Positions 10,232 to 49,051 of a stretch of 64,000 nt of DNA are shown here, one piece after another. The notes under the pieces are model-generated. The model was given only the letters and a program-made list of their open reading frames with translations. It made no database searches and was not told where the DNA came from. Within the stretch, counting starts at the first letter, position 1. Every line of letters begins with the position of its first letter. Origin of the DNA: an uncultured virus (IMG/VR IMGVR_UViG_3300021365_000007) (lineage: Duplodnaviria > Heunggongvirae > Uroviricota > Caudoviricetes); IMG/VR virus record IMGVR_UViG_3300021365_000007; one strand, written 5' to 3'. The position numbers and the translations under genes were made by a program.

Positions 10232-10313
10232 ATAGTCACCGTTATAGGAGTCGAACCTATTATATCTTAACTAAACTTCACTAAAATTAAGTATACTAAC
10301 CACTAGACGGTGA
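10232..10313 (-). ncRNA. tRNA-like element 1 (non-canonical cloverleaf)
   Basis: TCACCGT/ACGGTGA outer stem, AGTGGTT D-like loop, ~11-bp arm in place of the anticodon arm, ATAGG-TTCGACT-CCTAT T arm, 3' CTATT. Confidence 0.7.
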
Positions 10314-12921: not shown

Positions 12922-13401
12922 ATGAAATTAGAAGTCCTAAGATTTAATTACGGAATAGATTCTACTAATGGTATTCTCTTTGATATATCAAATGGTGAAC
13001 GAAAATTTTTATGCTACACATTAGAAGATGAAAGTAGAGAAGAAAAAGTATGGGGAGAAACTTGTATACCTGAAGGAGAGTATTGCATCGGTCTTAGGAC
13101 TGTGGGTGGACATCACACCAAATACTCTAAAAGGTTTGCCGACATACACAAAGGCATGCTTCACGTACTTGATGTGCCTAACTTTAAATATATACTCATC
13201 CATTGTGGCAATACTGACGAACACACTGCAGGATGTTTACTACTGGGTAACTCGCAAGTAAACAACAATGTTAAGACTAATGGATTTATAGGTAACAGTA
13301 CAGAAGCTTACTTTAATGTGTACCCAAAAATTGCTGCAGTACTAGACGAAGGACAAGAGGACGTAACGATCAAGTACACCGACTTTACAATTATGAAATA
13401 A
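12922..13401 (+). CDS. DUF5675-like (L,D-peptidase-fold) protein, candidate endolysin
   Basis: CYTLED, TCIPEGEY and ILIHCGN...TAGCLLLG with a His/Cys pair. Confidence 0.75.
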   Translation: MKLEVLRFNYGIDSTNGILFDISNGERKFLCYTLEDESREEKVWGETCIPEGEYCIGLRTVGGHHTKYSKRFADIHKGMLHVLDVPNFKYILIHCGNTDEHTAGCLLLGNSQVNNNVKTNGFIGNSTEAYFNVYPKIAAVLDEGQEDVTIKYTDFTIMK

Positions 13402-33500: not shown

Positions 33501-34038
33501 TCTTATAAAGCTAGAGTTAATTAATTACTTATTTAACAATGCAATCAATGAGCCTTGTATGGCTAATTGTGACGACACTGAAGATCCAAAAGCAATTGCA
33601 AAAGGTATTAAGAAGCCCTCTTGTAACGAGAGATGGAAGTCTGGAGGATTTGAGGTATGGACACCTACTAGTACATATGGTAAAGGTGTTACAGTAGCAG
33701 TAATAAGATACGAAGCAGGTCAATTAAAAAGACGATTTTATACTTCTACAGCTGCTATCGGATCAGGAGATGTTCCCCCTCGAACAGCAATCTCAAATAC
33801 AAAAGTCTCTAAGTGGACTCCTTGTAAAACAGTTAGAGGTAAGAGTTCTAATAACCCAGGAGAACCTGCATATATAACAAAACTGTATGAATTTATGGCT
33901 AAGTTCTGCGAACAATGTTCAGTATACAAAGTAGCAGAAGATGCAGACGCAGATACATCTGCAAAAAGAGACATACAGAAAGATTCAAGTCCTTCAGGAC
34001 TCGTTGACGAAAACGGTAACGAAATAAAACTTTTTTAA
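27592..34038 (+). CDS. Giant (2148 aa) putative fibre/surface protein with GCxDxxAxNY repeats
   Basis: Four GC(T/C)DxxAxNY repeats and a Cys/Asp/Pro-rich segment; no signal peptide. Confidence 0.75.
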   Translation: MNKGGKHYVVVPTLTDINAASNNAAASTSVFCPFKILNSHNGGKDVTYDGDKYRFEEGFFQEVMGVVPSKIHNYHTGDIVLLSESNISTYIDKIRYNYLEDGHKIISIIYNQEAFQDDVAREIEFKVLFEDGDYHSVKQPVIHSECLEDISLNFDQVFTSNETGSAPLQSGGGVPLRSGIGINNNPGGSDPIVFHTAAYTDPKWGNIEAPQTRDYYQTIYINNEILPYGAGNSTIVTGQDGNNYTIGTRSALWEFRQIASTTDYSYDSSTGIVGGSLYNETLDGLQSISTNLIQFGATAGRDGYKSIEFFNTVCPSITATGQIVSDPSDLFNPNLLNIKEKSLAGTLYGGARGYAGQYTSDGVPSKSLVNAFYLKNSPNVRSNTDTSRRMDGIVFGIKKQNNTNFSGAGFAAVDGGYDTANNLLRDIAIKLLEGAEAQSINQSLGGYSQGAWLPPGYESSAGNQLMCNLMSPQDLISNFIFGQHTFFLSRPHHLGAGVDSAQSTYQSSLAASLFKKAQHPNFTPRDGSSDFAQSTVNGLAIDNVGEDPKYITAVPYHIYVDSFQNISCNTIQAGNNFTDSSVMGTAGLEGGVPAQDAFIGSLTGQAGPVASLSTSLFQSQFPEGTDNTKVQVVNVSSSQIANILTVYTPVKNNVTPNTALLPSDSLDLPSLDKNSVKWTNGNLNEPVGVDSYTLQILQATNPALSTFWNSLQESNYYTDISHAAAKGIVTQGLRWRPGATSSDNRFVYLRGCLNLKRGRELIIEDSISSNYQLDLLITPGLSEVTTNVTELQFKAKYDAGVGNIVSSSIIPTLEFLADCGCNSLPTKVEWENASNLNVDANALNIFAIKYTPGRHEIDPILFPINDDTYSIGTQVTADDSSVDTDNNHPLTLTVNLDNQTPLSVDRPLVDVNLSSFQWDETFAPTSKIQLGQRAGETSYQLGLEPPFEYSSTAVEFSPQTFDFVSLGVQVVEGGGVQEPTPGCTDPNAINYNPKADVDDGSCQYCDEDDPLNSAYGEFLSSGISNIQIFPQAPITGSNIPFGLSSFISQIEWYQGQIGNAHNYWGYGLNAAVAADGSVAVPYGDDFGEEANIYTNFRFEFDFAPYQSANYPNDNLESLLTTLIEQAGADATNIFTLSFYDIEKWNGENSDYATLYTQDDFEASYLTDGASTVSIGSMTNQSTNPLQARFASYDSSVTIGVGGPAVAGNATLEASYFNGLNVTQTIDGESTTQLLSPLTDGFGQTFLAPGKQYLVVLNIDIGLLFNGYIDAATADELSCNIQLRVPYNFWVTFCGCDLPDSPNYIGDLITDYVWSGTSTFPAGYNIFDQCVSGAGSRIKRNSDAESAGYCLPVPDPFNCENFIDACTQTATSDCIPLNDGTGNQTFVGTLTVDVFGAYTGADNADQYAFVFGDELFQFEMWLIEGSWDGTTPVAEEGMYYSFQSYDDYAAVGFNPASSGQLNLVFTNLTAGLYTVVINQLSAFSFQEDYYSGEPVPCPMISLPTVTVGLGDGTDCPPLVVGCTDPDATNYNADAEVDDGTCEYVDCDDVYLSGKITQISTVNTVIDCVVETLDEDTNTTTTVLVDTGVGSITVDTFINDITGGGEDATIAGTFVMGYCQVINGNAGAAVTNLLDLFSSNQNEQITDTTRTETIFVTTNAGVNIGGFLGFDAAGQPLLTTGTILDAGYYAVMLIPSFAMVQDTDCTSVLVANFDSISFATVGSTFNFTDCPTPCNDQTNPEDCGDQIGGCTDENATNYDPTATFDTGICDYSDQSECDQNENAEGCEDCDTAEASGLPGFRNCDEFNDTTEGCCDPLACNYDPTVDVCLQSRCEYCCDPSDEECIDDPGPDECEDVNGNILPDCVQPECPDPTNPDCLEPPVDPCPNGDCGGPPEAECVILGNCPEGDDGGDDDDVVIIDDPIIEDVYCTPTGLGNYTTFEDVRLAAMTCSANEGSKLLFKLRSGVKMDRTDLIKLELINYLFNNAINEPCMANCDDTEDPKAIAKGIKKPSCNERWKSGGFEVWTPTSTYGKGVTVAVIRYEAGQLKRRFYTSTAAIGSGDVPPRTAISNTKVSKWTPCKTVRGKSSNNPGEPAYITKLYEFMAKFCEQCSVYKVAEDADADTSAKRDIQKDSSPSGLVDENGNEIKLF

Positions 34039-35987: not shown

Positions 35988-36388
35988 TGGCTTCAATAAT
36001 TACTAGACTTAGTGTTAGATCTAAGAACTTATTTTCAAATGCTTTAAGTGCTCGACATGATAAAGTAACTGCCGTAGGCACAGATGCAGACAGAAGGATA
36101 AAAACAATTAAAGTAGCATCAGGTGCTCCTGCGATATTATTAGATGCTTCAGATTATCATTCTACGGGCGAAGAAACAGTTTTTGTATTTGTAAAAAATA
36201 CAACAACAACAGCTAACAAGTATATCTATTTAAAAATAGGTAGTCAGGTAGCATTTAAACTTAAGCCAGGAGCGTATACTATGTTTCCTTGGTACGTAAA
36301 CAGTGAAAGTATAGACATTAACGTTTACTCAAATGATGCTTCTAATGGAGTTAAGGTAGAATACTTTGCAGTTAAAGAAACTACATAA
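35987..36388 (+). CDS. Small beta-sandwich protein (paralogue of 44720-45088)
   Basis: VFVKN...KLKPGAYTMFPW. Confidence 0.65.
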   Translation: MASIITRLSVRSKNLFSNALSARHDKVTAVGTDADRRIKTIKVASGAPAILLDASDYHSTGEETVFVFVKNTTTTANKYIYLKIGSQVAFKLKPGAYTMFPWYVNSESIDINVYSNDASNGVKVEYFAVKETT

Positions 36389-36825
36389 TGGGCAAGAAGA
36401 AGATTAAAGACACAAAGCTAGGGAACTGGCTTAAAGACAAAGCACCTAATATATTAGATGTTGTGGGAGATCTTCTTCCTGATTCTGGGGGTTTAGGTGT
36501 AGTTAAAAATCTAATTAGTAAAGATGACAGTATTGATCCTGTAGAGGCTCAAGCTAAAATAGATGCTGAAATAAAATTTCAAGAAAACGTTACAGAGCGT
36601 TGGAAAGCAGACATGGGCAGCGATGTAAAGCTAGCTAAACTTATACGTCCTGTTACGCTTATATGCCTTATGGGGATGTTTATGGTGACTATGTTTATAG
36701 ACAGTATGGACAACGTACCCTTTAATGTAAAGAACTCTTATGTGTCTTTACTAGAGCTTCTAATGCTTACAGCATTTGGTGCTTACTTTGCAGGTAGAAC
36801 TATAGAAAAGAAATCAAAAAAATAA
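36388..36825 (+). CDS. Holin-like membrane protein (3TM-holin-like)
   Basis: RWKADM, IRP followed by a TM helix, second TM ending GAYFAGRTIEK, basic tail. Confidence 0.7.
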   Translation: MGKKKIKDTKLGNWLKDKAPNILDVVGDLLPDSGGLGVVKNLISKDDSIDPVEAQAKIDAEIKFQENVTERWKADMGSDVKLAKLIRPVTLICLMGMFMVTMFIDSMDNVPFNVKNSYVSLLELLMLTAFGAYFAGRTIEKKSKK

Positions 36826-37980: not shown

Positions 37981-38266
37981 CGACATAGATGATGAAGACT
38001 ACACTTCTTCAGTAGAAGAAGAAATAGAAATCTTAGACGAAGCATACAGAAATGCATATGCTATCGCTACGGGCAAATTATCTGTACGTGAACTTTTAAA
38101 CAAAAGTCCGGACATGATCTTTTTGCCCTTTGATCCTTCCAAACCAGACACGTTTAAGTTAATAGTTGATGACATAATCAGATACTTCGAAGATAACGAA
38201 GAGTACGAAAAATGTGCCGAGTTAGTTCTTGCGATTGAAAAAGAAAAAATAGATGACCCTAGATGA
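37967..38266 (+). CDS. Acidic protein with a C-terminal UVR-like motif
   Basis: YFEDNEEYEKCAEL; likely start MLEFDD at 37967. Confidence 0.65.
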   Translation: MLEFDDIDDEDYTSSVEEEIEILDEAYRNAYAIATGKLSVRELLNKSPDMIFLPFDPSKPDTFKLIVDDIIRYFEDNEEYEKCAELVLAIEKEKIDDPR

Positions 38267-38921
38267 AATTGCATATAACATTCTAAACCTACTAAGGGGA
38301 GGAAGATCTAGTAATGATGAACTTATATCTGTGGAACAGATTAAGTTTAACATTAAACATTATCGTGCTATGTTTATACGTAGAGACTATGCTAGAAATG
38401 GCTATGTCTCTAATCATTTAGAACAAGATTTAGGATGTCTTGAATTAGAACAAGTAGACGCAAGTAGATGCTGTAATCTTCCTCAAAATTGTCCAGTATA
38501 TCGAACAAAAGAAAAACCACCTAAAACCGTAAGGTTTAATTTTACTGATGCTTTTACTTTTATTGGTAAGCCTAACGGTACAGGTACAATACCTAAAGTA
38601 GAGTCTTACGAGATAGAACTTTTACCTTACGATAAATTTACTTCTGGGCACAGTAAATATTATATTATTGATGACTATATTTACGTATACAATCCTAAAG
38701 GATTAGAAGCTATAAATGTTCGTGGTGTATTTGAAGATCCAGAAGATGTAGCAAACTTTTCTACATGTAAAGACGGAGAATGTTATGACGACCAATCCCC
38801 ATTTCCATTGCCAATGGATATGGTTAGCACAATTACTGCAGGGATGGCTGCAGGAGAACTGGCACTTTTAGTTGGGGGTATTAATGATACCACCAATGAT
38901 CGACAACAAGATAAACAATAA
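38253..38921 (+). CDS. Tail ring protein
   Basis: MTLDEIAYNI, QDLGCLELEQVD and RGVFEDP motifs typical of crAss ring proteins. Confidence 0.7.
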   Translation: MTLDEIAYNILNLLRGGRSSNDELISVEQIKFNIKHYRAMFIRRDYARNGYVSNHLEQDLGCLELEQVDASRCCNLPQNCPVYRTKEKPPKTVRFNFTDAFTFIGKPNGTGTIPKVESYEIELLPYDKFTSGHSKYYIIDDYIYVYNPKGLEAINVRGVFEDPEDVANFSTCKDGECYDDQSPFPLPMDMVSTITAGMAAGELALLVGGINDTTNDRQQDKQ

Positions 38922-38926
38922 TTAAA

Positions 38927-39268
38927 ATGGGATTAAATACAACAACCGATAGATTGTTAGATAAGTTAACAAAAGCTCACGAGGATATGATTGCACCTCA
39001 CAATACAGTGTACCTTACAGGAACAAAAGCTTTTACAGGACCTTTTTATGCAATTACAGCTTTAACAGAAACTGTAATTGATGCAAGTGAAGGTGACACT
39101 AACATTGTAGAAAGTGATGATTCAGGGTCAATGCAAAATTTATCAGGAACTTTAACAATTCCTGCAGGCGTTACTATTTATGGTAATTTTGGAGTTGTTG
39201 AACTAGATAGTGGAACTGCAGTAGGTTATGCAAAACGTGGAGTAACAGTAGCAGTAGCAGGATCGTAA
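38927..39268 (+). CDS. Small virion-module beta protein
   Basis: TIPAGVTIYGNF..VELDSG. Confidence 0.65.
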   Translation: MGLNTTTDRLLDKLTKAHEDMIAPHNTVYLTGTKAFTGPFYAITALTETVIDASEGDTNIVESDDSGSMQNLSGTLTIPAGVTIYGNFGVVELDSGTAVGYAKRGVTVAVAGS

Positions 39269-40095
39269 TGTTAGGATTAGGACTTGGAGCAGGAAAATTA
39301 AGTTATGTACCCGTAGCAGGAGCAGGGTACACAAACGCACAATCAATTGACCTTGATGGTACAGGTGATTATGTAGAAACAAATTATACTGCAGCAGCTT
39401 TACAAACTTTGATACGTGGTAATTTTAGTGTTTCTATGTGGATAAGAGCTCCTTATAATGCTAGTTTTCATTTGTTTGGATATGACGATACAGGTAGTAG
39501 TGTTGCGGGAAGGTTCGAAGTAAACTATTTATACTTTGGTGCACTTGATGCTTTTCAAGCTACTGGTAAATCAAGTAATCAAAATTGGAGTACTATAACT
39601 TCTGTTAACCCAACTGCAACAAACACTCCAAACGCCTGGATACATGTAGCATATACAGTAATAAAAGGACCAGACAACTCCACTAACGGTACACATAATA
39701 TATATATAAATGGATCGTTATTAGCATCTGCTGCTACGCAGACGAAAAACTATTTTGAAGCTACTGAAGTAAGTACTAGTGGGGTCGCACGAGGGCTTGC
39801 TATTGGAGCAAAAAATACTAATGGTACTGTAGGTCAACATATGACTGGGCAAATAGATGAAGTTGGTATATTTGGTGTTGCTTTAGATGCAGACGCTGTA
39901 GCAGCTATATATAATTCAGGAGTACCATTTGATCTTACAGAAAATAATGGTAATTATGATACTTCTCTTAAATTAGCTCGTTATTATAGATTTGAAGGCA
40001 CAGATCAAACTGCGCTACAATTAGATAGAGGTAAAAATGAAGTAAATATAACGCTAGAGGGAAATCCAACAGCTAGTAGTGAAGTACCAAGTTAA
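39268..40095 (+). CDS. LamG/concanavalin-A-like lectin-domain protein
   Basis: LDGTGDYV, FSVSMW, WIHVAY, GQIDEVGIF, IYNSG motifs. Confidence 0.8.
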   Translation: MLGLGLGAGKLSYVPVAGAGYTNAQSIDLDGTGDYVETNYTAAALQTLIRGNFSVSMWIRAPYNASFHLFGYDDTGSSVAGRFEVNYLYFGALDAFQATGKSSNQNWSTITSVNPTATNTPNAWIHVAYTVIKGPDNSTNGTHNIYINGSLLASAATQTKNYFEATEVSTSGVARGLAIGAKNTNGTVGQHMTGQIDEVGIFGVALDADAVAAIYNSGVPFDLTENNGNYDTSLKLARYYRFEGTDQTALQLDRGKNEVNITLEGNPTASSEVPS

Positions 40096-40100
40096 TAGAT

Positions 40101-40328
40101 ATGGGCTGGACAATAATAAATAAATCAGAAACAGAGTCGTTAGACTTCTCTCAACTACCGTTTACTAACGCAAATAAACTTAGGCATTCTTTAGATGGAT
40201 CTAAAGTTGTTGTCAAATACATTGGAGATAAACCTTCATTCCTTGATGGGACAACTGATTATACATACGAAGAGATAAGTACTATCCTTAAAGGAGACGA
40301 CTGGTCTAATAATGAAGATCCTAGGTAA
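40101..40328 (+). CDS. Small hypothetical protein following the LamG gene
   Basis: LRHSLDGSKVVVKY..PSFL. Confidence 0.7.
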   Translation: MGWTIINKSETESLDFSQLPFTNANKLRHSLDGSKVVVKYIGDKPSFLDGTTDYTYEEISTILKGDDWSNNEDPR

Positions 40329-40840
40329 TGGCAGTAAGGAAAACAGCAAAAGGATTAGCTCTTAAACGATGGTTTAAAGAAGACTGGAGAACTCCTAAAG
40401 GAAAGAAAGGATACAGTGGTTCTGACAAAACATTTAGACCTACTAAAAAAGTATCCTCTAAAACTCCTTCAACATGGTCAGAGTTAAGCGATTCCGAAAA
40501 AGCAACAGCTGCAAAAGAAAAACGAACTAAAGGAAGAGTTAGTAGATATAAAAAGAAAATGGGAGGAACTAAATCACCAGCGTGGACACGTAAAGCAGGA
40601 AAGAATCCTTCAGGTGGACTTAACCGAAAAGGAATTGCATCTTATAGAAGAGCAAATCCAGGAAGTAAACTGTCTATGGCAGTTACTGAAAAGAACCCTA
40701 CAGGTAAGAAAAAATCTAGACGTAAATCATTCTGCTCACGTATGTGCGGCATGAAATCAAAAAGAACTGGAGCAGAGGGAAAGAGAGATCCCAACTCACG
40801 TATTAATAAAGCACTTAGAAAATGGAGATGCAGATGTTAA
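40328..40840 (+). CDS. Basic two-module protein (DUF5872-like plus DUF6321-like) joined at KKKMGG
   Basis: LKRWFKEDW..RPTKKVSSKTP module, then PAWTRKAGKNPSGGLN..RRKSFCSRM..KALRKW module; family names recalled, not searched. Confidence 0.65.
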   Translation: MAVRKTAKGLALKRWFKEDWRTPKGKKGYSGSDKTFRPTKKVSSKTPSTWSELSDSEKATAAKEKRTKGRVSRYKKKMGGTKSPAWTRKAGKNPSGGLNRKGIASYRRANPGSKLSMAVTEKNPTGKKKSRRKSFCSRMCGMKSKRTGAEGKRDPNSRINKALRKWRCRC

Positions 40841-42975
40841 AAAATTTACTTACATTATTTCTTATAAGTTTAGCAAGTACTATATGTGCACAAGATAGTT
40901 GGGTTAATGTAGTTGTGCAAACAGATCAGTATGGAGGTGAGACTGCTTGGGAGATATACCAAGACAGTCAGTTAATGGCCGTCTCTCCACCCTATCAAGG
41001 TAACTCGTATTATGAGACTGTAGTTGAACTACCTGCTGGGCAGTATAACTTAGTTGTATACGACACTTTTGGTGATGGTATCTGCTGTGCTTTTGGAACT
41101 GGTTACTTTGGGGTAACGAACTCTTGTGGATTAGACACATTTGTATATGACTTTAGCACTCCACAGGCCACTGTATTTTTTGAGTTAACTGAATGTGAAC
41201 GACCTGTATACGGGTGTTTACAACCTAACGCTTTAAACTACAATCCATGGGCTAATACCCCAACACCATGTAACTTTCCACCAGTACCGTGTGGGGAAGG
41301 TCAAACAAACATACTGTCGTTTTTTACTCCTGATAGTTATCCAACAGAAACAAGTTGGGAGATTACAGTTAACGGTGACTCACTAACATCTGGTGGTGGT
41401 GGTACAACGGGTATAACTGAACCTGTTTATCACTGCGTCAACGAAGGTGATACGGTTGTTGCTAGTATATACGATATATACGGAGACGGTATGTGTGGTA
41501 CTTGTTGGGGTGGAGTTGATGGATTCTTTCACGTAACAACTTTGTGTGGTGATAATATATTTATGGCGGGTGGTGGTATTGAGTTTGATACACTATACTC
41601 AGAACCTTATATAGTACCATCTTGTACACCTCCGTTTTTACCAGGGTGCACTAACGAGCTATTTGTAGAATATAATCCTAACGCTCAAATAAATGATGGA
41701 AGTTGTATTACTGAAATCGCTCTAGGGTGTATACAAGAAGATGCTTTAAACTACGATCCGCTAGCTAATACAATGGAGACTGAAAATGCTTGTAGTTATG
41801 ACCTTGTTATAACAGATGGTGGAGCTGACGGTTGGTTTGGGAGTTGGTTAGGTTTTACACAAGGTGACAGTCTATATGGTCCATATCAAATGGGCCCTAA
41901 CGATGGGCATGAAGAAGTATTTGAGGTTAACTTAAACTCTCATGAAGAAGTTAAGGTTTATTTTTTCACAAGTGGCAACGCTGAAACTACAGCAGCTCAG
42001 TGCGGGTTTAGACTAGAAGGCCCTAATGGTGTTATAGCTCAGAGCGGAACAAATCCTTGGACTGACAAGTTAAAGAAGTTTCCATTCTTTTACAGCGCTA
42101 TACCTACGTGTTCAAACTACTGCATATCACCTGTGATAGGTTGTGTTGATACTGAAGCTTGTAACTTTAATAGCTTAGCAAATGTAAATCACGGATGTAT
42201 TTATTCTATAGAATACTACGACTGTGACAACTTATGTAACAGTGACATGGATAACGACGGTGTGTGTGATGAGCTTGAGATAGTTGGTTGCATGGATCAA
42301 ACCGCTTTTAATTATAATGAGTTAGCTACAGATCCAGCTGACTGTGAACCACTAATATTCGGATGTACAGATGCCACGCAATATAACTATAACCCAGAAG
42401 CTAACACAGAAAACGGTAGCTGTATTCCTTACATTGACGGTTGTACTGATAGCACTGCCTTTAATTATGATCCGTTGGCTACTGCTGACAACGGCTCGTG
42501 TATTGAAATCGTGGAAGGGTGTGCAGATATTGAAGCGGTAAATTATAATTCTCTAGTAAATATTCCTAACAATAATGTATGTCTATATGATGCAGGATGC
42601 ATTACAGGACCAGGAGAACCATATTACTTAAACGATTCATGCTATGCTTGGATTATAAATATTGACTCATACTGCTGTGAAGTAGGATGGGATGCAGCTT
42701 GCATAAATTTATATGAGTACTGTGAACAAGGTTGGCCTACAGGAGTACCAGAGATTAACACAGGTATTACTCTGTACCCAAACCCTACAAGTACTATACT
42801 AAATATACAAACTTCTTTAGACGTAGTCACAGAGATATATAACGCACAAGGCCAACTTGTAGTCTCTGGAACTACAAAAAAAAGAATAGATCTTATGGGA
42901 CTCTCTAAAGGTCTATATCAAGTTGTTATAGATTACAACGGTAGAAAAATTAATAAAAAGATAACTAAGCTATGA
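40834..42975 (+). CDS. Secreted Cys-repeat protein with a type IX secretion (type A) C-terminal sorting domain
   Basis: Signal peptide ending ICA-Q; eight GCxxxxAxNY-type repeats; C-terminal LYPNPT..IYNAQGQLV..IDLMGLSKGLY..KKITKL. Confidence 0.88.
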   Translation: MLKNLLTLFLISLASTICAQDSWVNVVVQTDQYGGETAWEIYQDSQLMAVSPPYQGNSYYETVVELPAGQYNLVVYDTFGDGICCAFGTGYFGVTNSCGLDTFVYDFSTPQATVFFELTECERPVYGCLQPNALNYNPWANTPTPCNFPPVPCGEGQTNILSFFTPDSYPTETSWEITVNGDSLTSGGGGTTGITEPVYHCVNEGDTVVASIYDIYGDGMCGTCWGGVDGFFHVTTLCGDNIFMAGGGIEFDTLYSEPYIVPSCTPPFLPGCTNELFVEYNPNAQINDGSCITEIALGCIQEDALNYDPLANTMETENACSYDLVITDGGADGWFGSWLGFTQGDSLYGPYQMGPNDGHEEVFEVNLNSHEEVKVYFFTSGNAETTAAQCGFRLEGPNGVIAQSGTNPWTDKLKKFPFFYSAIPTCSNYCISPVIGCVDTEACNFNSLANVNHGCIYSIEYYDCDNLCNSDMDNDGVCDELEIVGCMDQTAFNYNELATDPADCEPLIFGCTDATQYNYNPEANTENGSCIPYIDGCTDSTAFNYDPLATADNGSCIEIVEGCADIEAVNYNSLVNIPNNNVCLYDAGCITGPGEPYYLNDSCYAWIINIDSYCCEVGWDAACINLYEYCEQGWPTGVPEINTGITLYPNPTSTILNIQTSLDVVTEIYNAQGQLVVSGTTKKRIDLMGLSKGLYQVVIDYNGRKINKKITKL

Positions 42976-44015
42976 AACATGTTCTAATTATGTTGTCTGT
43001 TTTTCTACTTGCGTCTGTTACGGCTAGTGGGCAAACACTTAAAAAAACATTTAAGTTTGCTACATTCTATACAGCGTTTAGCGGGGGTAATTCTATTTCA
43101 GATAATAATATTTATTCTGTATCTAATGGGCTGCAGACTAACGTAGTATCAACACCTTTTGATTATTCACTTACAGCAGGTGTACGTAAAATAGCTAGGT
43201 TTGGATATGAGAACAGAGCTAATACATTTTACAACGGAACAGAGAAATCATACAGTGATGCTGCTACTGTTGGTAAAGTAAAAGGCTTTGAGTTTCTTTT
43301 TGAGGCTGACTGGCGTAGACAGCAAGGAACAAACTTCTTAGATCAAAATCACTTTCTTAGATATGTAGCTAAAGACTGGATAGCTAAAGTTGAATACGTA
43401 CAAGATGGATTTGCTGATGTAAGTTACTTTGAAGGATCTCAACGATATAGACTTAATGTAAATAAACGTCTTAGTTTTAACATAGGTGCAGCACAACGTA
43501 TTTCTGAGCCTTACGGTTATGATGCTCTCGAAGAGTGGATGTTATCTAATGGAAACTTACATTACACCACCCTTGCTATACAAGAAGGATATAGTATAGA
43601 TGTAGCTGCTAACGAATATTACAATCCAGAAGGATCTTTAGTTGCTACAAGTGCAGATGTATGGGAGCAAGTTGTTGTCCCTGAAGTTCTAAATGATTAT
43701 GTGTCACGTAAAAGAAACGAACTTCCTAGTCAATGGAACTATTCTTTAGTCATTGGATATGACTACTACAAATTTGATAAAGATTTTTGGATACACAGTT
43801 GGGCCAGTGTAATGCCTTATCATTTTTCAACAGGCGGTGAATACTCTTATTTTGAAACAACTAATGGGGATCAGTGGGTAGATTACGCTGGAGGTCTTAT
43901 ATTTGGTTGGAGACTTAATAAAAGTCTTGGGATTTTTTTAGAAGGCAAATATAATAAATATTGGAACAGAGAGTGGCATGACTTTTCTGTGGGACTTAAT
44001 TACGTAATACGATAA
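42972..44015 (+). CDS. Putative outer-membrane beta-barrel protein
   Basis: Signal peptide ending ASG-Q; aromatic-rich alternating strands; terminal strand DFSVGLNYVIR. Confidence 0.7.
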   Translation: MKHVLIMLSVFLLASVTASGQTLKKTFKFATFYTAFSGGNSISDNNIYSVSNGLQTNVVSTPFDYSLTAGVRKIARFGYENRANTFYNGTEKSYSDAATVGKVKGFEFLFEADWRRQQGTNFLDQNHFLRYVAKDWIAKVEYVQDGFADVSYFEGSQRYRLNVNKRLSFNIGAAQRISEPYGYDALEEWMLSNGNLHYTTLAIQEGYSIDVAANEYYNPEGSLVATSADVWEQVVVPEVLNDYVSRKRNELPSQWNYSLVIGYDYYKFDKDFWIHSWASVMPYHFSTGGEYSYFETTNGDQWVDYAGGLIFGWRLNKSLGIFLEGKYNKYWNREWHDFSVGLNYVIR

Positions 44016-44016
44016 A

Positions 44017-44301
44017 ATGGCACAACAAATAGGGGAAAATACTAAAGTAACATTAGACCTAAAAACAATAGGGATGGGAGTTGTTGGGTTAGCAGCTTTA
44101 ATAGGCATGTGGTTTGCGTTACAAGCTGATATAGCTTTAGCAAAAGAATTGCCTGAGCCACTACCTCCTGAAATATCTCGCATGGAGTTTGACATGAAAG
44201 ATCAACTTGTAAGGCAAACAATTATGACAACCCAAGAAGACGTAACTGAATTAAAAGAAGATCTTGACCGAATAGAAGAAAAAATAGATAAATTAAAATG
44301 A
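44017..44301 (+). CDS. Single-TM protein with C-terminal coiled coil
   Basis: TM segment IGMGVVGLAALIGMWFAL; heptads VTELKEDLDRIEEKIDKL. Confidence 0.75.
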   Translation: MAQQIGENTKVTLDLKTIGMGVVGLAALIGMWFALQADIALAKELPEPLPPEISRMEFDMKDQLVRQTIMTTQEDVTELKEDLDRIEEKIDKLK

Positions 44302-44307
44302 TGAGAT

Positions 44308-44676
44308 ATGAAATCAATCCTTGCAATCCTTGCATCATTAGTATTATTTTCGGCAACTGTTTATGTAACAGCTGTTCCGGAAGTAATTAGTATACCTGAG
44401 TCAGGTGTTTGTGTTGTAGAATTTAATGCTAGCTTTAACTCTGGAAACAGTGTAGGCTGGTTAGACAACTTAAACGACTGTAAAGGTAAACGAATAGATA
44501 TAGCAACAGATCCTTCTATGCAAAAAGAGCATAAGATCGTTGTAGTACCCACCATTATAGTATTTAATGAGGGGGAAGAAATAGAACGTTTTCAAGCTAA
44601 CATTATGATGCAGCTTGAAGCCACAGAAAAAGATGTACAAGAAGTAATAGATGAGATACTTATGAGCTCCTTCTAA
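44308..44676 (+). CDS. Exported thioredoxin-fold protein lacking CxxC
   Basis: Signal/anchor; VVEFNASFN where VVDFWAxWC is expected; IVVVPTIIVFNEGEEIERF cis-Pro strand. Confidence 0.75.
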   Translation: MKSILAILASLVLFSATVYVTAVPEVISIPESGVCVVEFNASFNSGNSVGWLDNLNDCKGKRIDIATDPSMQKEHKIVVVPTIIVFNEGEEIERFQANIMMQLEATEKDVQEVIDEILMSSF

Positions 44677-44719
44677 TCACTATCTTTATAAAATATATAA
44701 CTACTAAATAAGACCTAAA

Positions 44720-45088
44720 ATGGCAACTCTAAAAACAACACTGACTCTGACGTCAACCGACGTTTCATCAAACAGACTTAACATATCTGTATCTGATGTT
44801 CTTACAACTGCGGCAGCAGGACCCTCAAAGGGACTCTCAAGAGAAACAATAACAACCTCTGACAACCAAGAAATTTTGGATGAGGCAGTTAGCGGAGTAT
44901 TTTATTTCTACGCAAAAAATCTAGACTCTACTAACTTTATCATTCTTCAAACCACTGCTAGTGTACAGTATGCTAGACTTGGTCCAGGAGAATTTGCATT
45001 CTTCCCTGTAAACGATGGGGCGGGGGTAGAAGCAAGAGCTGATACATCTTCTTGTATCATAGAGTATGGATACTGGAAAAAAGCATAA
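44720..45088 (+). CDS. Small beta-sandwich protein (paralogue of 35987-36388)
   Basis: FYAKNLD...RLGPGEFAFFPV. Confidence 0.7.
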   Translation: MATLKTTLTLTSTDVSSNRLNISVSDVLTTAAAGPSKGLSRETITTSDNQEILDEAVSGVFYFYAKNLDSTNFIILQTTASVQYARLGPGEFAFFPVNDGAGVEARADTSSCIIEYGYWKKA

Positions 45089-45099
45089 TCTATAGTATT

Positions 45100-47142
45100 A
45101 TGAAAGCAAAATATCAAAAAGGTGGACGAAAAGCTGAAAGGGTTCAAAATAGAAAGGATGCAAAAGCAAATAGAAAAAAGTTTAAAAAATTTGGCACTCC
45201 TTTAAACAAAAAATCAATAAATTCATTTCGTCAAAAAGGTGGGTTTTCTTCAGCAGGAATAGGAACTTCGTATGAAAGGGAGAAAAGATTTGAGAACCGT
45301 GAGAAACAAAAACCTGACTTAAACCCTCCGCAATACTATGAGTATAAAGACGGTAAAAAAACAATACGGTACAAAGACGGCGATACTTACACACAGCCTC
45401 CTGCAGGAACTACGTATAAAATTAACAGAGGAGATAATACTGAAAGTAGCGAGATGCCTGTAGATAGGCGAAAAGGCGGCAAGCGTTATCAGAAAGGTGG
45501 AAAAAAGGTAAAGTCTTCTCTACAATATAAGCCAGGTTTTCCTGCTACGGGAAATAAACCTAGTCCTTACAATTTAAAAACTTTACAAAAAGCTATCAAT
45601 AGAGATAGCACAAAAGTTGCTGACCGTGGAATGATTGGGGACTTTTTTGACCCCGGAGTTACTAGTGGAAGCACAGGTCCAAGTGATCAATACAATCTTC
45701 AAATTAACCGTGAGTTTAGAGATAAAGAAACGGGATCTAGCTCAGAACAAACAGCTAAAAAAATTAATACAATGAAAAATAAAAAACAGAAAGGCGGCGA
45801 TTTAGATTTTCGTAAACAATGGTCTCAGGTCCGTAATAAAACCGCAGTTAAAGGTAAAAAGGCAGGACCAAAAGGACCTAGAACAATTGTAACAGCAAAA
45901 GGTTCTAAAAATAATGACAAAGGAGTAGGTCTTTTTGACCAAACAACTACAGGTACAAGTACCTTTACTAAAAAACGAAGAGACGGAACCGTTAAAAAAA
46001 CTATTACAAATAAAACAACTCGTACACCAAGAAAAGGCAGAAGTGATGCTAAGACAGATACAACTACAAAAACAAAATATAGAAAAGATGGTTCAGTAAA
46101 AAAATCTGTAACTCGTCCAGGACTTAATAAAAAAGCCCCAGGTTCTCGTATGGCTTCTAGTAAAATGCAGATGTATAACAAAGGCGATAAAGAAAAGTTT
46201 CAGAAAGGCGGGTACATGGAACCCTCTAAGGAAGTCAAGTTTGGCGGTCCTACAAAGAAAATGCAAAAAGGTGGATTGACCCAAGGAAAAGGTAAGGTCT
46301 CAACATCTGGAAAATCTAGAAAAAGAAACCCCAATGAAAGAACTCCTGTAGATCCAAGACCTAGTGACGAAATGACTTTTCTTCCTCCTGGGACAAGGGG
46401 AAAAAAGCAAAAAGGTGGTAAATACGGTAAGAAGTTTGATAGGCTGGGAAAGAAAATGCAAACACTTGAGAACAAGCAAATAGATAATTTTGACAACAAA
46501 AAAAAGTTTGATAGGCTTGGAAGCAGACGTACAAAGGTAATAAAAAAAAGACGTGATATTAAAGCTAAAAAAAATAGTAGTTCTGCTATGCAAAAAGGTG
46601 GATTAAAAACTCCTACTGCTAACCAAAAAGGTTTGAAGAAGCTTCCTACATCTGTACGCAATAAAATGGGTTTCAAGATGATGGGAGGTAAAATGAAATA
46701 CGGCATGGGCGGTAAAAAAAATAAAAAGTTTCTTGGAGGATTAGCAGGAGCTATTGGTGGAGCTAAAGGTGGTGGAGGAATCGGTGGTGCACTTAAAGGA
46801 GCACTTGGTGGTGGAATAGCTGGTAGATTTGCTGGAGCTATTGGTGGACTGAAAGATGGCGGTGGTCTTAAAGGAGCTATGCAAGGATTTGCAGGTGGAG
46901 CATTTGGAAACTCTAATCCTATGGGGGGTGGAGGAGCAGGAGGTGCAGCGGGAGGAGGTGTTCAGCAAGCTGCAGCAGATCCTGCAGCAGTAGCAGCTAA
47001 GCAAGAAGCAACAATACCAGGTGCTATGAAACGTGGTGGTTTAAAAGATCGTCGTAAAGCAGCTAAAAAGCGTATGAAAAAATCTAAAGCTTCTGCAAAA
47101 AGATCTGCTAAAAAAATAAACTCAAAAAATGCAGTATCCTAA
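45100..47142 (+). CDS. Highly basic low-complexity protein with eight QKGG motifs
   Basis: Likely start MKAKYQKGG at 45100; Lys/Arg-rich; Gly/Ala-rich stretch near the C-terminus. Confidence 0.8.
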   Translation: MKAKYQKGGRKAERVQNRKDAKANRKKFKKFGTPLNKKSINSFRQKGGFSSAGIGTSYEREKRFENREKQKPDLNPPQYYEYKDGKKTIRYKDGDTYTQPPAGTTYKINRGDNTESSEMPVDRRKGGKRYQKGGKKVKSSLQYKPGFPATGNKPSPYNLKTLQKAINRDSTKVADRGMIGDFFDPGVTSGSTGPSDQYNLQINREFRDKETGSSSEQTAKKINTMKNKKQKGGDLDFRKQWSQVRNKTAVKGKKAGPKGPRTIVTAKGSKNNDKGVGLFDQTTTGTSTFTKKRRDGTVKKTITNKTTRTPRKGRSDAKTDTTTKTKYRKDGSVKKSVTRPGLNKKAPGSRMASSKMQMYNKGDKEKFQKGGYMEPSKEVKFGGPTKKMQKGGLTQGKGKVSTSGKSRKRNPNERTPVDPRPSDEMTFLPPGTRGKKQKGGKYGKKFDRLGKKMQTLENKQIDNFDNKKKFDRLGSRRTKVIKKRRDIKAKKNSSSAMQKGGLKTPTANQKGLKKLPTSVRNKMGFKMMGGKMKYGMGGKKNKKFLGGLAGAIGGAKGGGGIGGALKGALGGGIAGRFAGAIGGLKDGGGLKGAMQGFAGGAFGNSNPMGGGGAGGAAGGGVQQAAADPAAVAAKQEATIPGAMKRGGLKDRRKAAKKRMKKSKASAKRSAKKINSKNAVS

Positions 47143-47626
47143 ACTTGATTATAAAAAAGGGGGCGCTAAAAAAGATGCCTGTTATCATAAGGTGAAGTCC
47201 AGATATAGTGTCTGGCCTTCAGCTTATGCTTCAGGTGCTTTGGCTAAGTGTCGTAAAGTTGGAGCTAGTAGTTGGGGTTCTAAAAAACAGATGGGAGGAA
47301 TTGATGTAGATTTTAGAACTGCAGACGAAAAAAAAACTGATTCAAAAGCTCAAAGAAAGCAAGACAGAAAAGACAAGAAAGGAATGATTCCTGCTAGATT
47401 TAGAAACAGGGGTCAAGAGGGATTAGATGCTTACAAAAAGATGATGATTAAAAAGCGAAAGAGAAAAACAAATAATCCTTTTGCTAAATTCAAAAAAGCA
47501 CGTACAGCTAGAAAAGCAGCTAGGCAAGGAGATAGCAATAGAAAAGCTTCTTCAGGGTCTGGGTGTCAAGGTAAAGGCTGTGGAGCTTACGAAAGATATG
47601 GTGGGTTAAAAGGTGTAAGAGGTTAA
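47129..47626 (+). CDS. Basic modular protein (KDACYHKVK..PSAYASG module between xxGG motifs)
   Basis: YKKGG, KQMGG and ERYGG delimit the modules. Confidence 0.7.
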   Translation: MQYPKLDYKKGGAKKDACYHKVKSRYSVWPSAYASGALAKCRKVGASSWGSKKQMGGIDVDFRTADEKKTDSKAQRKQDRKDKKGMIPARFRNRGQEGLDAYKKMMIKKRKRKTNNPFAKFKKARTARKAARQGDSNRKASSGSGCQGKGCGAYERYGGLKGVRG

Positions 47627-48108
47627 TGTATACAATTAAAGACATACATAAAAACTACTTAGATAGCGTTGAAGACCCTATAGAAACTCGTTTGTTTAAA
47701 CAACTATGTGAGGAATTCAATATGCAAGTAATCGATATGGTTCTTGAGGGTAAAGAATTTAGTATGGGTAGTAATCTATCAACATTGTCTATCCGAAGAA
47801 TAGAACGCAATCCCAGCAAGCCTACAATAGACTGGTGGGAAAGTAACAAATACAAGCAAGAGCTAGTTGCCGAAGGCAAACAACTCTATGATGCTGAGGC
47901 TAAAACAGGAGAAAAGTGGTTTGTGTACTACACTGATCCTTGGTATTGTAAATATCACTGGCAGAAGTCTAGATGTAAAATATCTAATAAGTCTGCATAT
48001 AGGTTTACCCCTACTAGAGGTATAAAAGGAAATAAAGAAAAACTAACAAGGTTATTAAAAGAAGACGAGTTAGCTTATTTAAAATTTAAGAAGCATGGCA
48101 ATATATAA
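47626..48108 (+). CDS. crAss IHF-like protein upstream of tail genes
   Basis: FSMGSNLSTLSI, IDWWES, YRFTPTR motifs; synteny. Confidence 0.7.
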   Translation: MYTIKDIHKNYLDSVEDPIETRLFKQLCEEFNMQVIDMVLEGKEFSMGSNLSTLSIRRIERNPSKPTIDWWESNKYKQELVAEGKQLYDAEAKTGEKWFVYYTDPWYCKYHWQKSRCKISNKSAYRFTPTRGIKGNKEKLTRLLKEDELAYLKFKKHGNI

Positions 48109-49051
48109 AACCACATCTTGTCAGGTAGTACTGAGAAAGGTTATGAGAGATCTAAATCCCCCAGACGGGAATTGGATTGATGATGGCGTAGAATGGATTG
48201 GGGAAGCACTAGAACACATTGGTGCTAGTACTCAATTAGTTACTGAGGGGTGCATACTTGAAGTTAAAGACTTCAAAGCTGTATTACCCCCAGACTTATA
48301 CTACATTAATCAAGTATCTATAAATGAAACTGAAGGAGGAATATCTATAACTAGTCAGATGGATACTCTTAAAACTTTACTAACAGAAACTATAGCATCT
48401 ACTACTGCTTCTAGAAACGAAATAGCCAATAGCATACAAAAATTGGTTGACGGTACTACAACAAGCAACTTAACTAACACACAATTAGAAGCTAATGCTG
48501 GTTTACAAAAAGCAAGTGATAAAACATTGAATGAAATCAATGCTAGGTTACAAGTGTTAGAAAATGATTATATGACCCAAAACCAAACAATACTTGCATA
48601 CTGCACTACAAACTTTCCAGAAGCAATACACTGTGAAGGATGTGTGAACAAACAAGCTAAATGTAAAGAGTGTTACTATGTAGAAGACGGATACGTTAAA
48701 ACTTCATTTGAAAGCGGTAAAGTATGTTTATCTTATAAAGCTTTCCCAACAGATGCAGAATGCTACCCATTGGTCCCAGACGACATTAGTTATAAAGAAG
48801 CTATGTTCTGGTACATATATAAAAAGATGTTACTAGGAGCAACGTTTGATGCTTCTAAAAACGGTATTGATTACAGCTACGCAGATCAACAGTGGAAGTA
48901 CTACTGCACACAAGCACGTAATGCAGCTGTATACCCAGATATTGACAGAATGGAAAGTTTTATGAATCAATGGGTTAGGCTTATACCTAATATAAATAGA
49001 GTAGATGAAGGTTTTGAAAACTTAGGAACACGAGAAAATCTACAGAGGTAA
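48095..49051 (+). CDS. Tail tubular / ring protein
   Basis: EWIGEALEHIG, TSFESG..LSYKAFPTD..YPLVPD motifs; directly upstream of the muzzle gene. Confidence 0.75.
   Translation: MAIYKTTSCQVVLRKVMRDLNPPDGNWIDDGVEWIGEALEHIGASTQLVTEGCILEVKDFKAVLPPDLYYINQVSINETEGGISITSQMDTLKTLLTETIASTTASRNEIANSIQKLVDGTTTSNLTNTQLEANAGLQKASDKTLNEINARLQVLENDYMTQNQTILAYCTTNFPEAIHCEGCVNKQAKCKECYYVEDGYVKTSFESGKVCLSYKAFPTDAECYPLVPDDISYKEAMFWYIYKKMLLGATFDASKNGIDYSYADQQWKYYCTQARNAAVYPDIDRMESFMNQWVRLIPNINRVDEGFENLGTRENLQR

Follow-up and report, generated by a model that had tools for sequence, protein, structure and literature searches.

A four-gene phage cassette whose products are probably addressed to the host envelope through Sec, BAM and the type IX secretion system

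Gene content and organization of the cassette

The DNA analyzed in this work (the window) is a stretch of 64,000 nucleotides from an uncultured virus (IMG/VR record IMGVR_UViG_3300021365_000007), and the element under study is a group of four genes located at positions 40834-44676, named here g1 to g4 and referred to as the cassette (Table 1). A first-pass annotation had described four tightly coupled genes at this position, and four plus-strand open reading frames (ORFs) packed without gaps were indeed found there. The stop codon of the preceding gene, g0, overlaps the start of g1, the stop of g1 and the start of g2 overlap by 4 nucleotides (ATGA), g3 begins 2 nucleotides past g2, and g4 begins 7 nucleotides past g3; the cassette genes leave no gaps for separate promoters. 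When the cassette region was scanned, promoter-like sites occurred at chance level (43 vs. 42.5 expected), and terminator-like sites numbered 5 vs. 7.3 expected. Leaders and membrane segments of the deduced products were called with a Kyte-Doolittle script and by reading of the sequences.

The crAss-like identity of the phage, assumed in that annotation, was borne out by hidden Markov model (HMM) searches, in which the Crassvirales hallmarks Crass_capsid (E = 1.9e-78), Ring 1 and Ring 2 (Table 1) all matched. The window also carries terminase and portal genes assigned to PHROGs, together with a replication module on the minus strand, and the cassette is located in a 9-kb interval that extends from the Ring 2 gene to the Ring 1 gene.

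Table 1. Location of the cassette genes and of other features of the window considered in the text (aa, amino acids).
Feature	Coordinates	Strand	Length	Basis and remarks
g1, variable predicted T9SS cargo	40834..42975 (ORF opens at 40822)	+	717 aa from 40822	PF18962 and TIGR04183 above cut-off
g1, type-A C-terminal sorting domain (residues 651-714)	42772..42963	+		PF18962, TIGR04183
g2, predicted 12-stranded outer-membrane beta-barrel	42972..44015	+	347 aa	AlphaFold2 model and fold matches
g2, most conserved stretch of the family (residues 75-102)	43194..43277	+		pLDDT <50, disordered in the model
g3, predicted bitopic inner-membrane protein	44017..44301	+	94 aa	Hydropathy and sequence reading
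g4, predicted exported thioredoxin-fold protein	44308..44676	+	122 aa	Family profile vs. PDB
g0, very basic DUF5872 + DUF6321 protein	40328..40840	+		Pfam; overlaps the start of g1
Holin-like gene (phrog_3427, annotated "holin")	36388..36825	+		E = 9.5e-22; 4 kb upstream of the cassette
DUF5675 candidate endolysin	12922..13401	+		PF18925, E = 8.8e-26
crAss tail ring protein 2	38253..38921	+		PF25702, E = 2e-39; 73% identity to relative G016; bounds the variable island on the left
crAss tail ring protein 1	48095..49051	+		PF24228, E = 8.3e-60; 54% identity to relative G016; bounds the variable island on the right

A predicted cargo of the type IX secretion system

The product of g1 had been proposed to be an exported protein with cysteine repeats, ending in a type-A C-terminal sorting domain (CTD) of the T9SS (type IX secretion system), and each of these features was recovered. 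The CTD scored above both curated cut-offs in HMM searches, with 42.5 bits (E = 8.3e-11, cut-off 27) for Pfam Por_Secre_tail (PF18962) and 39.1 bits (cut-off 23) for the NCBIfam type-A sorting domain TIGR04183, and no type-B CTD model was listed for g1 in NCBIfam at E ≤ 0.1. The YPNP motif (652-655), G697, Y699 and the terminal lysines were invariant or nearly so in 11 g1 homologues. In other phages, 24 large proteins whose genes immediately precede the barrel gene were scanned, and 19 of them carried Por_Secre_tail above its cut-off. In two loci (L036 and L078) the CTD protein is encoded downstream of the g4 homologue instead, and the proteins of L075 and L077 end in a CTD-like sequence that was not called by the HMM. 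At the other end of the protein, homologues begin at the residue matching M5, in agreement with the proposed start at 40834, and a hydrophobic leader ends in ..ICA, followed by Q. In 21 of 22 leader-bearing homologues the hydrophobic core likewise precedes a small residue that is followed by Gln, an arrangement that fits the "Q-rule" of Bacteroidota, which applies to substrates of signal peptidase I. Together, these address labels support a predicted route for g1 through Sec and the T9SS.

Between the two labels lies a modular region, and the protein contains 40 cysteines in all. In the AlphaFold2 model (mean predicted local distance difference test, pLDDT, 66) the leader is followed by three beta-sandwiches (approximately 25-122, 161-264 and 323-408, numbered from 40822), about eight Cys-knot repeats of the form GC.D..A.NYN..A....C, a Cys-rich region that is helical and, last, the sandwich of the CTD. 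A fold search with this model returned only generic tandem beta-sandwich matches (C2, laminin G and C1q, with a template modeling score of ~0.1), none of which allowed a domain to be named. Some homologues carry carbohydrate-binding-type domains (AMPK1_CBM, CBM53) or TSP3 repeats. In the ESM Atlas, g1 and g2 retrieved only viral "hypothetical" clusters, some of the g1 neighbors having Por_Secre_tail or MAM domains, and a tblastn search of GenBank phages with g1 gave a single match, confined to a Cys repeat of 58 residues in one marine virus. The Cys repeat recurs in the same phage at 30532-33132, inside a 2148-aa ORF (27592-34038), and also in a 1921-aa "virion structural protein" of the phage G003 described below; it appears to be an extracellular module common to a virion protein and a secreted protein.

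A predicted outer-membrane barrel and two small exported partners

The description of g2 as a beta-barrel-like protein with a signal peptide was upheld by its leader (ending in ..ASG, followed by Q), by its model and by fold matches that were solely to outer-membrane barrels. The AlphaFold2 model, built on a 32-row alignment (mean pLDDT 77.4, predicted template modeling score 0.74), is an all-beta barrel of 12 long strands with a structured insert at residues 179-253 and a C-terminal strand G.NY.I[F/R]. When it was compared with 48,161 chains using VIA-align, 12-stranded barrels ranked first: Tsx was at the top (Z 14.2, root-mean-square deviation 3.6, 188 residues aligned), and was followed by the EstA beta-domain (Z 13.7), KdgM (12.7), NalP (12.4) and NanC (12.3). 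An outer-membrane barrel was likewise found in every match listed by Foldseek. Many of the 32 aligned homologues end in NY.IF, which resembles a beta-signal, and the window copy ends in R. A leader, a closed barrel model and a signal-like C-terminal strand are thus all present in g2, as in substrates of the beta-barrel assembly machinery (BAM), and on the modeled structure a predicted route through Sec and BAM is supported.

No Pfam, PHROG or NCBIfam family could be assigned to g2, and a credible Pfam match was found in none of the 32 family members. In particular, models for PorP/SprF or PorV were absent from the matches of g2 and of the 32 relatives (Pfam, E ≤ 1; NCBIfam, E ≤ 0.1); at the fold level, FadL-type chains reached only Z 7.4 as compared with 12-14 for the 12-stranded barrels, and neither PorV nor PorP was among the matches listed. 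Phage_OMP (PF24653) was not matched by the 32 family members at E ≤ 1, and is a neighbor of g2 in feature space only (0.94, 151 shared features). Conservation within the family was highest in a stretch that is disordered in the model (Table 1), the nearly invariant residues there and next to it being R72, K73, A75, F77, Y79, G89 and E91. By strand count this stretch would form a long periplasmic turn, and is therefore a candidate partner-binding site. A complex prediction for g2 (22-347) and g3 (38-94) scored 0.00, a value obtained without controls and informative neither way.

Regarding g3, which had been described as a membrane segment plus a coiled coil, the single membrane segment was confirmed (approximately residues 17-36), and the tail was read from its sequence as helix-type. 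The predicted layout comprises a short N-terminus, the membrane segment, a Pro-rich linker and an acidic tail with an invariant RME.DMKD motif. Family matches were weak (phrog_1009, E = 1.7e-4; PspC, E = 0.019), and no relative was found among solved structures (best E = 0.65).

The exported thioredoxin fold without CxxC attributed to g4 was also supported, given its leader, its family profile and its motif. Nearly all listed matches of the profile among the 188 PDB sequences retrieved at E ≤ 1 were thioredoxins (best E = 4.5e-9), although the single sequence remained below the Pfam thioredoxin cut-off (17.3 vs. 23.5 bits). The thioredoxin motif F.A.WC..C is replaced by FNA.[FW]N..N, with NxxN or a deletion at the CxxC position, and the cis-Pro loop (VPT) is retained; in 27 homologues N40, A41 and N44 were invariant and N47 nearly so. 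Relatives were found in 2157 protein clusters from public metagenomes, with no informative name or Pfam family among the 120 listed. The protein thus shares fold-level homology with the thioredoxin family and differs from it in being exported and in its altered CxxC, on account of which g4 is presumably no redox enzyme.

Since substrate-specific channels with 12 strands (Tsx, KdgM and NanC) are among the folds that match g2 best, the cassette might be read as a module of benefit to the host, in which a secreted binding protein and a small solute channel would aid attachment to particles or polysaccharides, or uptake of nucleosides or sugars, during infection. The starch/glycogen-binding modules of some g1 homologues and the high abundance of the cassette in marine metagenomes agree with this. 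Autotransporter barrels, however, match the g2 fold equally well, no catalytic or transport family was detected, g3 and g4 are given no role, and the cassette sits in putative late operons, all of which makes this explanation improbable.

Co-conservation of the four genes

Relatives of g2 are numerous, with 434 of 440 pattern matches found in IMG/VR and 329 clusters matched at E ≤ 1e-3 in a 50%-identity library. A set of 80 IMG/VR loci retrieved via g2 was used to analyze its partners, and tblastn located g3 in 72, g4 in 69 and a g1-like gene in 75 of these loci, nearly all the misses being in loci that end at or beside the barrel gene. Independent clustering of 1143 neighboring ORFs gave a matching picture (CTD protein in 71 loci, barrel in 70, thioredoxin-like protein in 68 and g3-like protein in 66), so that the coupling noticed in the window proved to be strongly conserved by both approaches. 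Gene orders were cyclic permutations of one another: 1-2-3-4 in most loci, 2-3-4-1 in four (L036, L078, L081 and L090) and 3-4-1-2 in two (L075 and L093). Such permuted orders would fit movement of the cassette via a circular or tandem intermediate.

The four members diverged to different extents. Best-segment identities to the window copy ranged from 33 to 63% for g1, the fastest-evolving member, from 60 to 87% for g2 and mostly from 58 to 91% for g3, and reached up to 94% for g4. A leaderless, Cys-containing ORF of 57-74 aa was often present between the CTD and barrel genes (33 + 19 of the 80 loci; e.g. L097:8697-8882 and L011:7786-7974, both ending in ..RFRFMI.NFGFE[IF]). The window, in which g1 and g2 overlap, has no such ORF.

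Distribution and mobility

Although the cassette was first noticed in a crAss-like phage, it is not specific to this group, as most copies were found in unrelated phages of ~62 kb (G002, G003, which has terminal repeats, and G004, all 100% complete) and in contigs of 105-171 kb (G005, G006 and G010), with few crAss-like contigs and a patchy occurrence among the relatives of the window phage itself. Among nine cassette-bearing viral records tested, crAss Ring 1 was detected in one (G007, used as positive control); a weak Ring 1 match was found on another contig of the metagenome-assembled genome (MAG) G011. Within the portal clade of the 62-kb phages g2 was present in 9 of 11 records and in all four complete genomes. 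Portal and capsid of the window phage showed no BLASTP similarity to those of G003 (E = 2.0 and 8.2, respectively), while g1 to g4 were 51-80% identical between the two phages; PHROG assigns the terminases and portals of both to the same remote families. The placement of the cassette varied among phage types, also within the 62-kb group: after the portal gene in the G002 type, which is the commonest arrangement (42 loci) and in which an 812-aa protein shares 67% identity with the portal of G003; after the holin-like gene in the G003 type; and between ring proteins in the window.

A comparison with close relatives showed how the cassette is embedded in the window. The record nearest to the window (G001) is a 27.5-kb fragment without g2. 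A complete 89-kb crAss-like relative (G016) is syntenic with nearly the whole window, its portal and capsid being 73 and 84% identical, and in its Ring 2-Ring 1 interval has a different 12.5-kb gene set (L229:19212-20000 and L230:1-12186) with no CTD protein. This interval is therefore considered a variable island. The only genes of the 38921-48095 interval common to both phages are the DUF6321 gene and a 160-aa gene preceding Ring 1. The gene set of the relative includes a weak Phage_cement_2 match.

The possibility that the region is a chimeric host insert, raised along with the first-pass annotation, was ruled out. In an independent marine run (X4, which carries no flag as a possible source), 38001-48000 is covered by overlapping contigs that differ from the window by one letter at most, and these bridge both borders of the cassette, at 40363-42234 over g0/g1 and at 44187-44994 over g3/g4/g5. 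Nearly all relatives were located on viral contigs, and the base composition stays uniform along the region. Near-identical copies of the cassette region were found in marine runs from many studies, and no run recorded as RNA contains it. Summed contig depth in four marine runs was highest over g3 (44013-44346) and over the DUF6321 part of g0 (40339-40672), segments that are conserved and common to many co-occurring phages.

Outside viral records, a pattern-limited scan of species-representative prokaryote genomes returned five loci, all in MAGs and all with cassette genes, whose taxonomy was inconsistent (an archaeon, three alphaproteobacterial MAGs and a Winogradskyella). These are read as mis-binned phage DNA, the alternative being a prophage in Winogradskyella. 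No match was found in GenBank phages, either by megablast of 38000-48000 or by tblastn with g2. Taken together, the cassette is most likely a horizontally mobile, phage-specific unit whose products are addressed, via the Sec, BAM and T9SS machineries of the host, to the surface, the outer membrane, the periplasm and the inner membrane.

It could be argued that the four proteins are instead tail or capsid accessories, the CTD-like domain being merely a structural Ig-like fold. The cassette does lie between tail ring genes in the window and between portal and capsid genes in the G002 type, and the neighbor g5 showed a weak match to a "minor tail protein" PHROG (E = 2.7e-4). Tailed-phage virions assemble in the cytoplasm, and against such a role three of the four proteins bear conserved leaders of the cleavable type and one is a membrane barrel by prediction; moreover, the same cassette is found in phages with unrelated portals and capsids and is absent from the complete close relative. 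A virion function is thus very hard to sustain.

Neighboring genes and linkage to lysis functions

In the window the cassette is flanked by extremely basic proteins rich in Lys and Gly (DUF5872, DUF6321, phrog_727), at 40328-40840, 45052-47142 and 47129-47626. The g0 product is 64-85% identical over part of its length to proteins of G003 and G002, and a DUF6321 cluster was found in 21 of the 80 loci, behind the thioredoxin-like gene (e.g. L002:8373-8693). These flanking proteins may belong to the mobile block.

Two genes with lysis-related family annotations are present elsewhere in the window (Table 1). The holin-like protein is 85-86% identical to the copies of G003 and G002, and the DUF5675 protein is 68-78% identical to theirs. 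In a 2026 preprint (10.64898/2026.04.11.717860), a DUF5675 protein is grouped by structure with C82-like peptidase lysins. Of 47 window proteins, 8 had a tblastn match at E ≤ 1e-5 in G003 and 11 in G002, and identities of at least 44% to the 62-kb phages were found for g1 to g4, for two basic proteins (g0, which has DUF6321, and g7), for the holin-like protein and for the DUF5675 protein. The identities of the last two, in phages whose portal and capsid are unrelated, suggest that envelope-active genes were recently exchanged between phage lineages, presumably within a host common to them.

Lysis-related genes were also found beside the cassette in several phages. The holin-like gene phrog_3427 lies immediately upstream of the CTD gene in 9 of the 80 loci. 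In G003 the order is a 1752-aa protein, the holin-like protein (phrog_3427, E = 1.2e-22), the CTD protein, a 61-aa ORF, the barrel, the g3-like protein, a 75-aa ORF, the thioredoxin-like protein, a DUF6321 protein and a protein of 907 aa that contains an SLT lysozyme domain. In the 165-kb type (L051/L052), a 112-aa protein with two transmembrane segments precedes the CTD protein, the barrel, the g3-like and the thioredoxin-like proteins, which are followed by a PG_binding_1 + Amidase_2 protein and by Phage_holin_4_1; the former is immediately downstream of the cassette in 9 loci and the latter comes next in 7. A small protein with two transmembrane segments stands beside the cassette in 8 loci. 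In L048/L049 a 73-aa protein with two such segments comes after the thioredoxin-like gene, and in L078 a Peptidase_M15_3 gene comes after the CTD gene.

Other observations concern the larger phages and the remainder of the window. Neighbors of the cassette in large phages include an Fe/Mn superoxide dismutase, a Zeta_toxin/AAA_33-type kinase, a PAP2 phosphatase and a family-2 glycosyltransferase (L045:2537-3208, L048:10800-11501, L048:12085-13335 and L061:2313-3395). Two small lipobox ORFs were found in or near the cassette of the L048/L049-type contigs, which are of 105-171 kb (L048:7672-7986 and L048:3797-4024), one of them Pro/Cys-rich and located between the CTD and barrel genes. The minus strand of the window carries a tRNA-Thr gene (anticodon AGT) at 10235-10312, where the replication module gives way to the structural one.

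Discussion

The first-pass annotation knew of no described system of this kind in crAss-like phages, a statement that held in part. Genes for T9SS sorting-domain proteins have in fact been reported, in the portions of the reports available, from crAss-like contigs (de Jonge et al. 2019, PMC6949934) and from "Cryophage", whose phage-encoded T9SS cargo was termed a unique occurrence (Bellas et al. 2020, PMC7468147); the four-gene set, on the other hand, was not reported in the literature found. Like g1, the cargo of these phages bears a type-A sorting domain and varies among phage variants, and the authors propose that the host T9SS is hijacked. Unlike the cassette, it is encoded by single genes (endoglucanase, GH39, PA14, BACON), and no partner barrel, helix protein, thioredoxin-like gene or link to lysis is described in those portions. 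Our literature search found no report of a cassette composed of cargo, barrel, membrane-helix protein and redox-dead thioredoxin. The components are of known kinds and their combination is new, in a cassette that is real and widespread.

Delivery of the products to the envelope is well supported, to an extent that no particular purpose is. From the address labels, folds, co-conservation, mobility and linkage to lysis genes observed here, we infer the following scheme for localization, T9SS dependence, physical association, timing and purpose. The g1 protein would cross the inner membrane by Sec, fold and acquire its many disulfides in the periplasm, and be carried by its type-A CTD through the host T9SS to the surface, while g2 would be exported by Sec and then inserted by BAM as a 12-stranded barrel. 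The g3 protein would stay in the inner membrane with its helix reaching into the periplasm, where g4 would reside as a redox-dead thioredoxin-fold protein. The last three genes would constitute the conserved working core and g1 the fast-evolving, surface-exposed part. All four products would be made late, along with the structural genes, and act at release, with the cassette providing or controlling the outer-membrane and surface step of lysis. In other Gram-negative phages this step is carried out by spanins, and in the cassette g3 might serve as the inner-membrane spanin subunit and the g2 barrel as the outer-membrane anchor. A late role in egress, in the outer-layer step of lysis or in its control, is the reading that we tentatively favor, as a possibility rather than a probability, on account of the layered trans-envelope design, the spanin-like g3, the repeated adjacency to and co-transfer with lysis genes, and the place of the cassette among the core genes of the 62-kb clade.

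The resemblance to two-component spanins such as lambda Rz/Rz1 lies in the layout of g3, with an N-terminal anchor and a periplasmic helix as in an inner-membrane spanin (i-spanin), a likeness of layout only, with no family model behind it, and in the tight coupling with an outer-membrane partner and the holin/endolysin neighbors seen in several phages. Such neighbors occur in the G003, L051, L048 and L078 types, and not in the commonest type or in the window, where the holin-like gene is 4 kb away. The differences are that the partner is an integral barrel and not a lipoprotein, that there are two extra members, that no sequence relation exists and that the periplasmic part is short.

A number of observations speak against a role in egress. 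The periplasmic part of g3, of ~58 residues, is short for crossing the periplasm, and no lipobox ORF of the kind expected for an outer-membrane spanin (o-spanin) was found in the window cassette; an o-spanin-type lipoprotein as a regular member was rejected, given that lipobox-like ORFs occur only in L048/L049-type loci. The labels of the holin and lysin genes are family annotations, and a constant association of DUF5675 with the cassette was likewise rejected, three of eight near-complete cassette genomes being without DUF5675 and one record without a g2 match having it. In the commonest arrangement (the 42 loci mentioned above) and in the window, structural genes rather than lysis genes adjoin the cassette. 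In the portal clade of the window phage, g2 is present in only 2 of 14 records and absent from the sole complete genome, and the relative G016 lacks the cassette and retains the holin-like gene, so that the cassette is evidently dispensable in that lineage. No enzyme domain was found in g1, and we know of no place in lysis for a hypervariable, modular, Cys-rich surface protein. Finally, accessory "moron" genes, e.g. lambda bor and lom, typically insert beside lysis or tail genes as well.

The main rival explanation is surface masking or superinfection exclusion, in essence the idea of the first-pass annotation, which had listed superinfection exclusion, aggregation, grazer evasion and occupation of the T9SS as conceivable purposes of an adhesin-like protein and its partner barrel. 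On this view, the variable, T9SS-delivered g1, held by the g2 barrel, would coat the infected cell and its debris, hide or block the receptor and keep progeny from sticking to debris, with g3 and g4 aiding folding or installation. The faster evolution of g1 relative to g2 and g3 is that expected for a part that meets a variable surface. Its modularity, with carbohydrate-binding-type domains or TSP3 repeats in some homologues, and the sharing of its Cys repeat with giant structural proteins (the 2148-aa one here and the 1921-aa one of G003) also speak for masking. Masking best explains this hypervariability together with the placement of the cassette in tail regions, among tail genes in the window and beside collagen-like fiber genes in some phages, and its accessory pattern among crAss-like relatives.

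Cargo-plus-barrel pairs are, moreover, a design principle of the T9SS (PorU-PorV, PorZ-PorQ and SprB-SprF/PorP), in which a CTD surface protein is beside, or works with, a dedicated outer-membrane barrel that holds it, as g1 and g2 might. However, g2 matched no PorP/SprF or PorV model by HMM and, among the fold matches listed, ranks with 12-stranded Tsx- or autotransporter-like barrels; it is for CTDs of type B that the rule of a dedicated barrel is known, the one of g1 being of type A. A precedent also exists among phage outer-membrane proteins: in the available part of a 2026 preprint survey of 1,603 barrels in huge phages (genomes >200 kb), which mentions the T9SS zero times, lambda Lom is cited as blocking LamB and receptor-level interference is proposed for such proteins (10.64898/2026.10.24.761521). 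Lambda Lom and Bor, the cyanophage Phage_OMP and the huge-phage barrels resemble g2 as signal-peptide beta-barrels of the host outer membrane, yet g2 showed no HMM match to any of these families. Known exclusion genes are single, small and often early, in contrast to a four-gene trans-envelope set in putative late operons, and masking leaves unexplained both the recurrent adjacency to and co-transfer with holin/endolysin genes and the core status in the 62-kb clade. While this explanation has to be taken seriously, we regard it as doubtful. It is that repeated adjacency and co-transfer that make lysis a serious rival to surface display.

A more specific form of the egress reading, which we consider unlikely as stated, is that the cassette represents the missing outer-layer lysis device of Bacteroidota phages, either a spanin replacement or a sensor of lysis timing. 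The barrel would be tied through g4, as adaptor, to g3, and g1 would pre-load or jam the T9SS pore, or sense the outside, thereby coupling holin firing to outer-membrane failure. To our knowledge, recognizable spanins are rarely annotated in Bacteroidota phages. If true, this would be the first phage lysis system that works through a host secretion system, and one that unrelated marine phages exchange as a unit, together with genes for holin-like proteins and candidate lysins.

Bacteroidota are among the main polysaccharide degraders of the ocean and the gut, and how phages pass through or reshape their outer layers is poorly known. Among phage gene sets, the cassette is so far the most clear-cut example of one organized around an address label for the T9SS, and it offers a new family of 12-stranded barrels and a redox-dead exported thioredoxin fold for characterization. 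Whatever its purpose, it provides a defined four-gene handle on the question of whether phages exploit the T9SS and BAM of their hosts.

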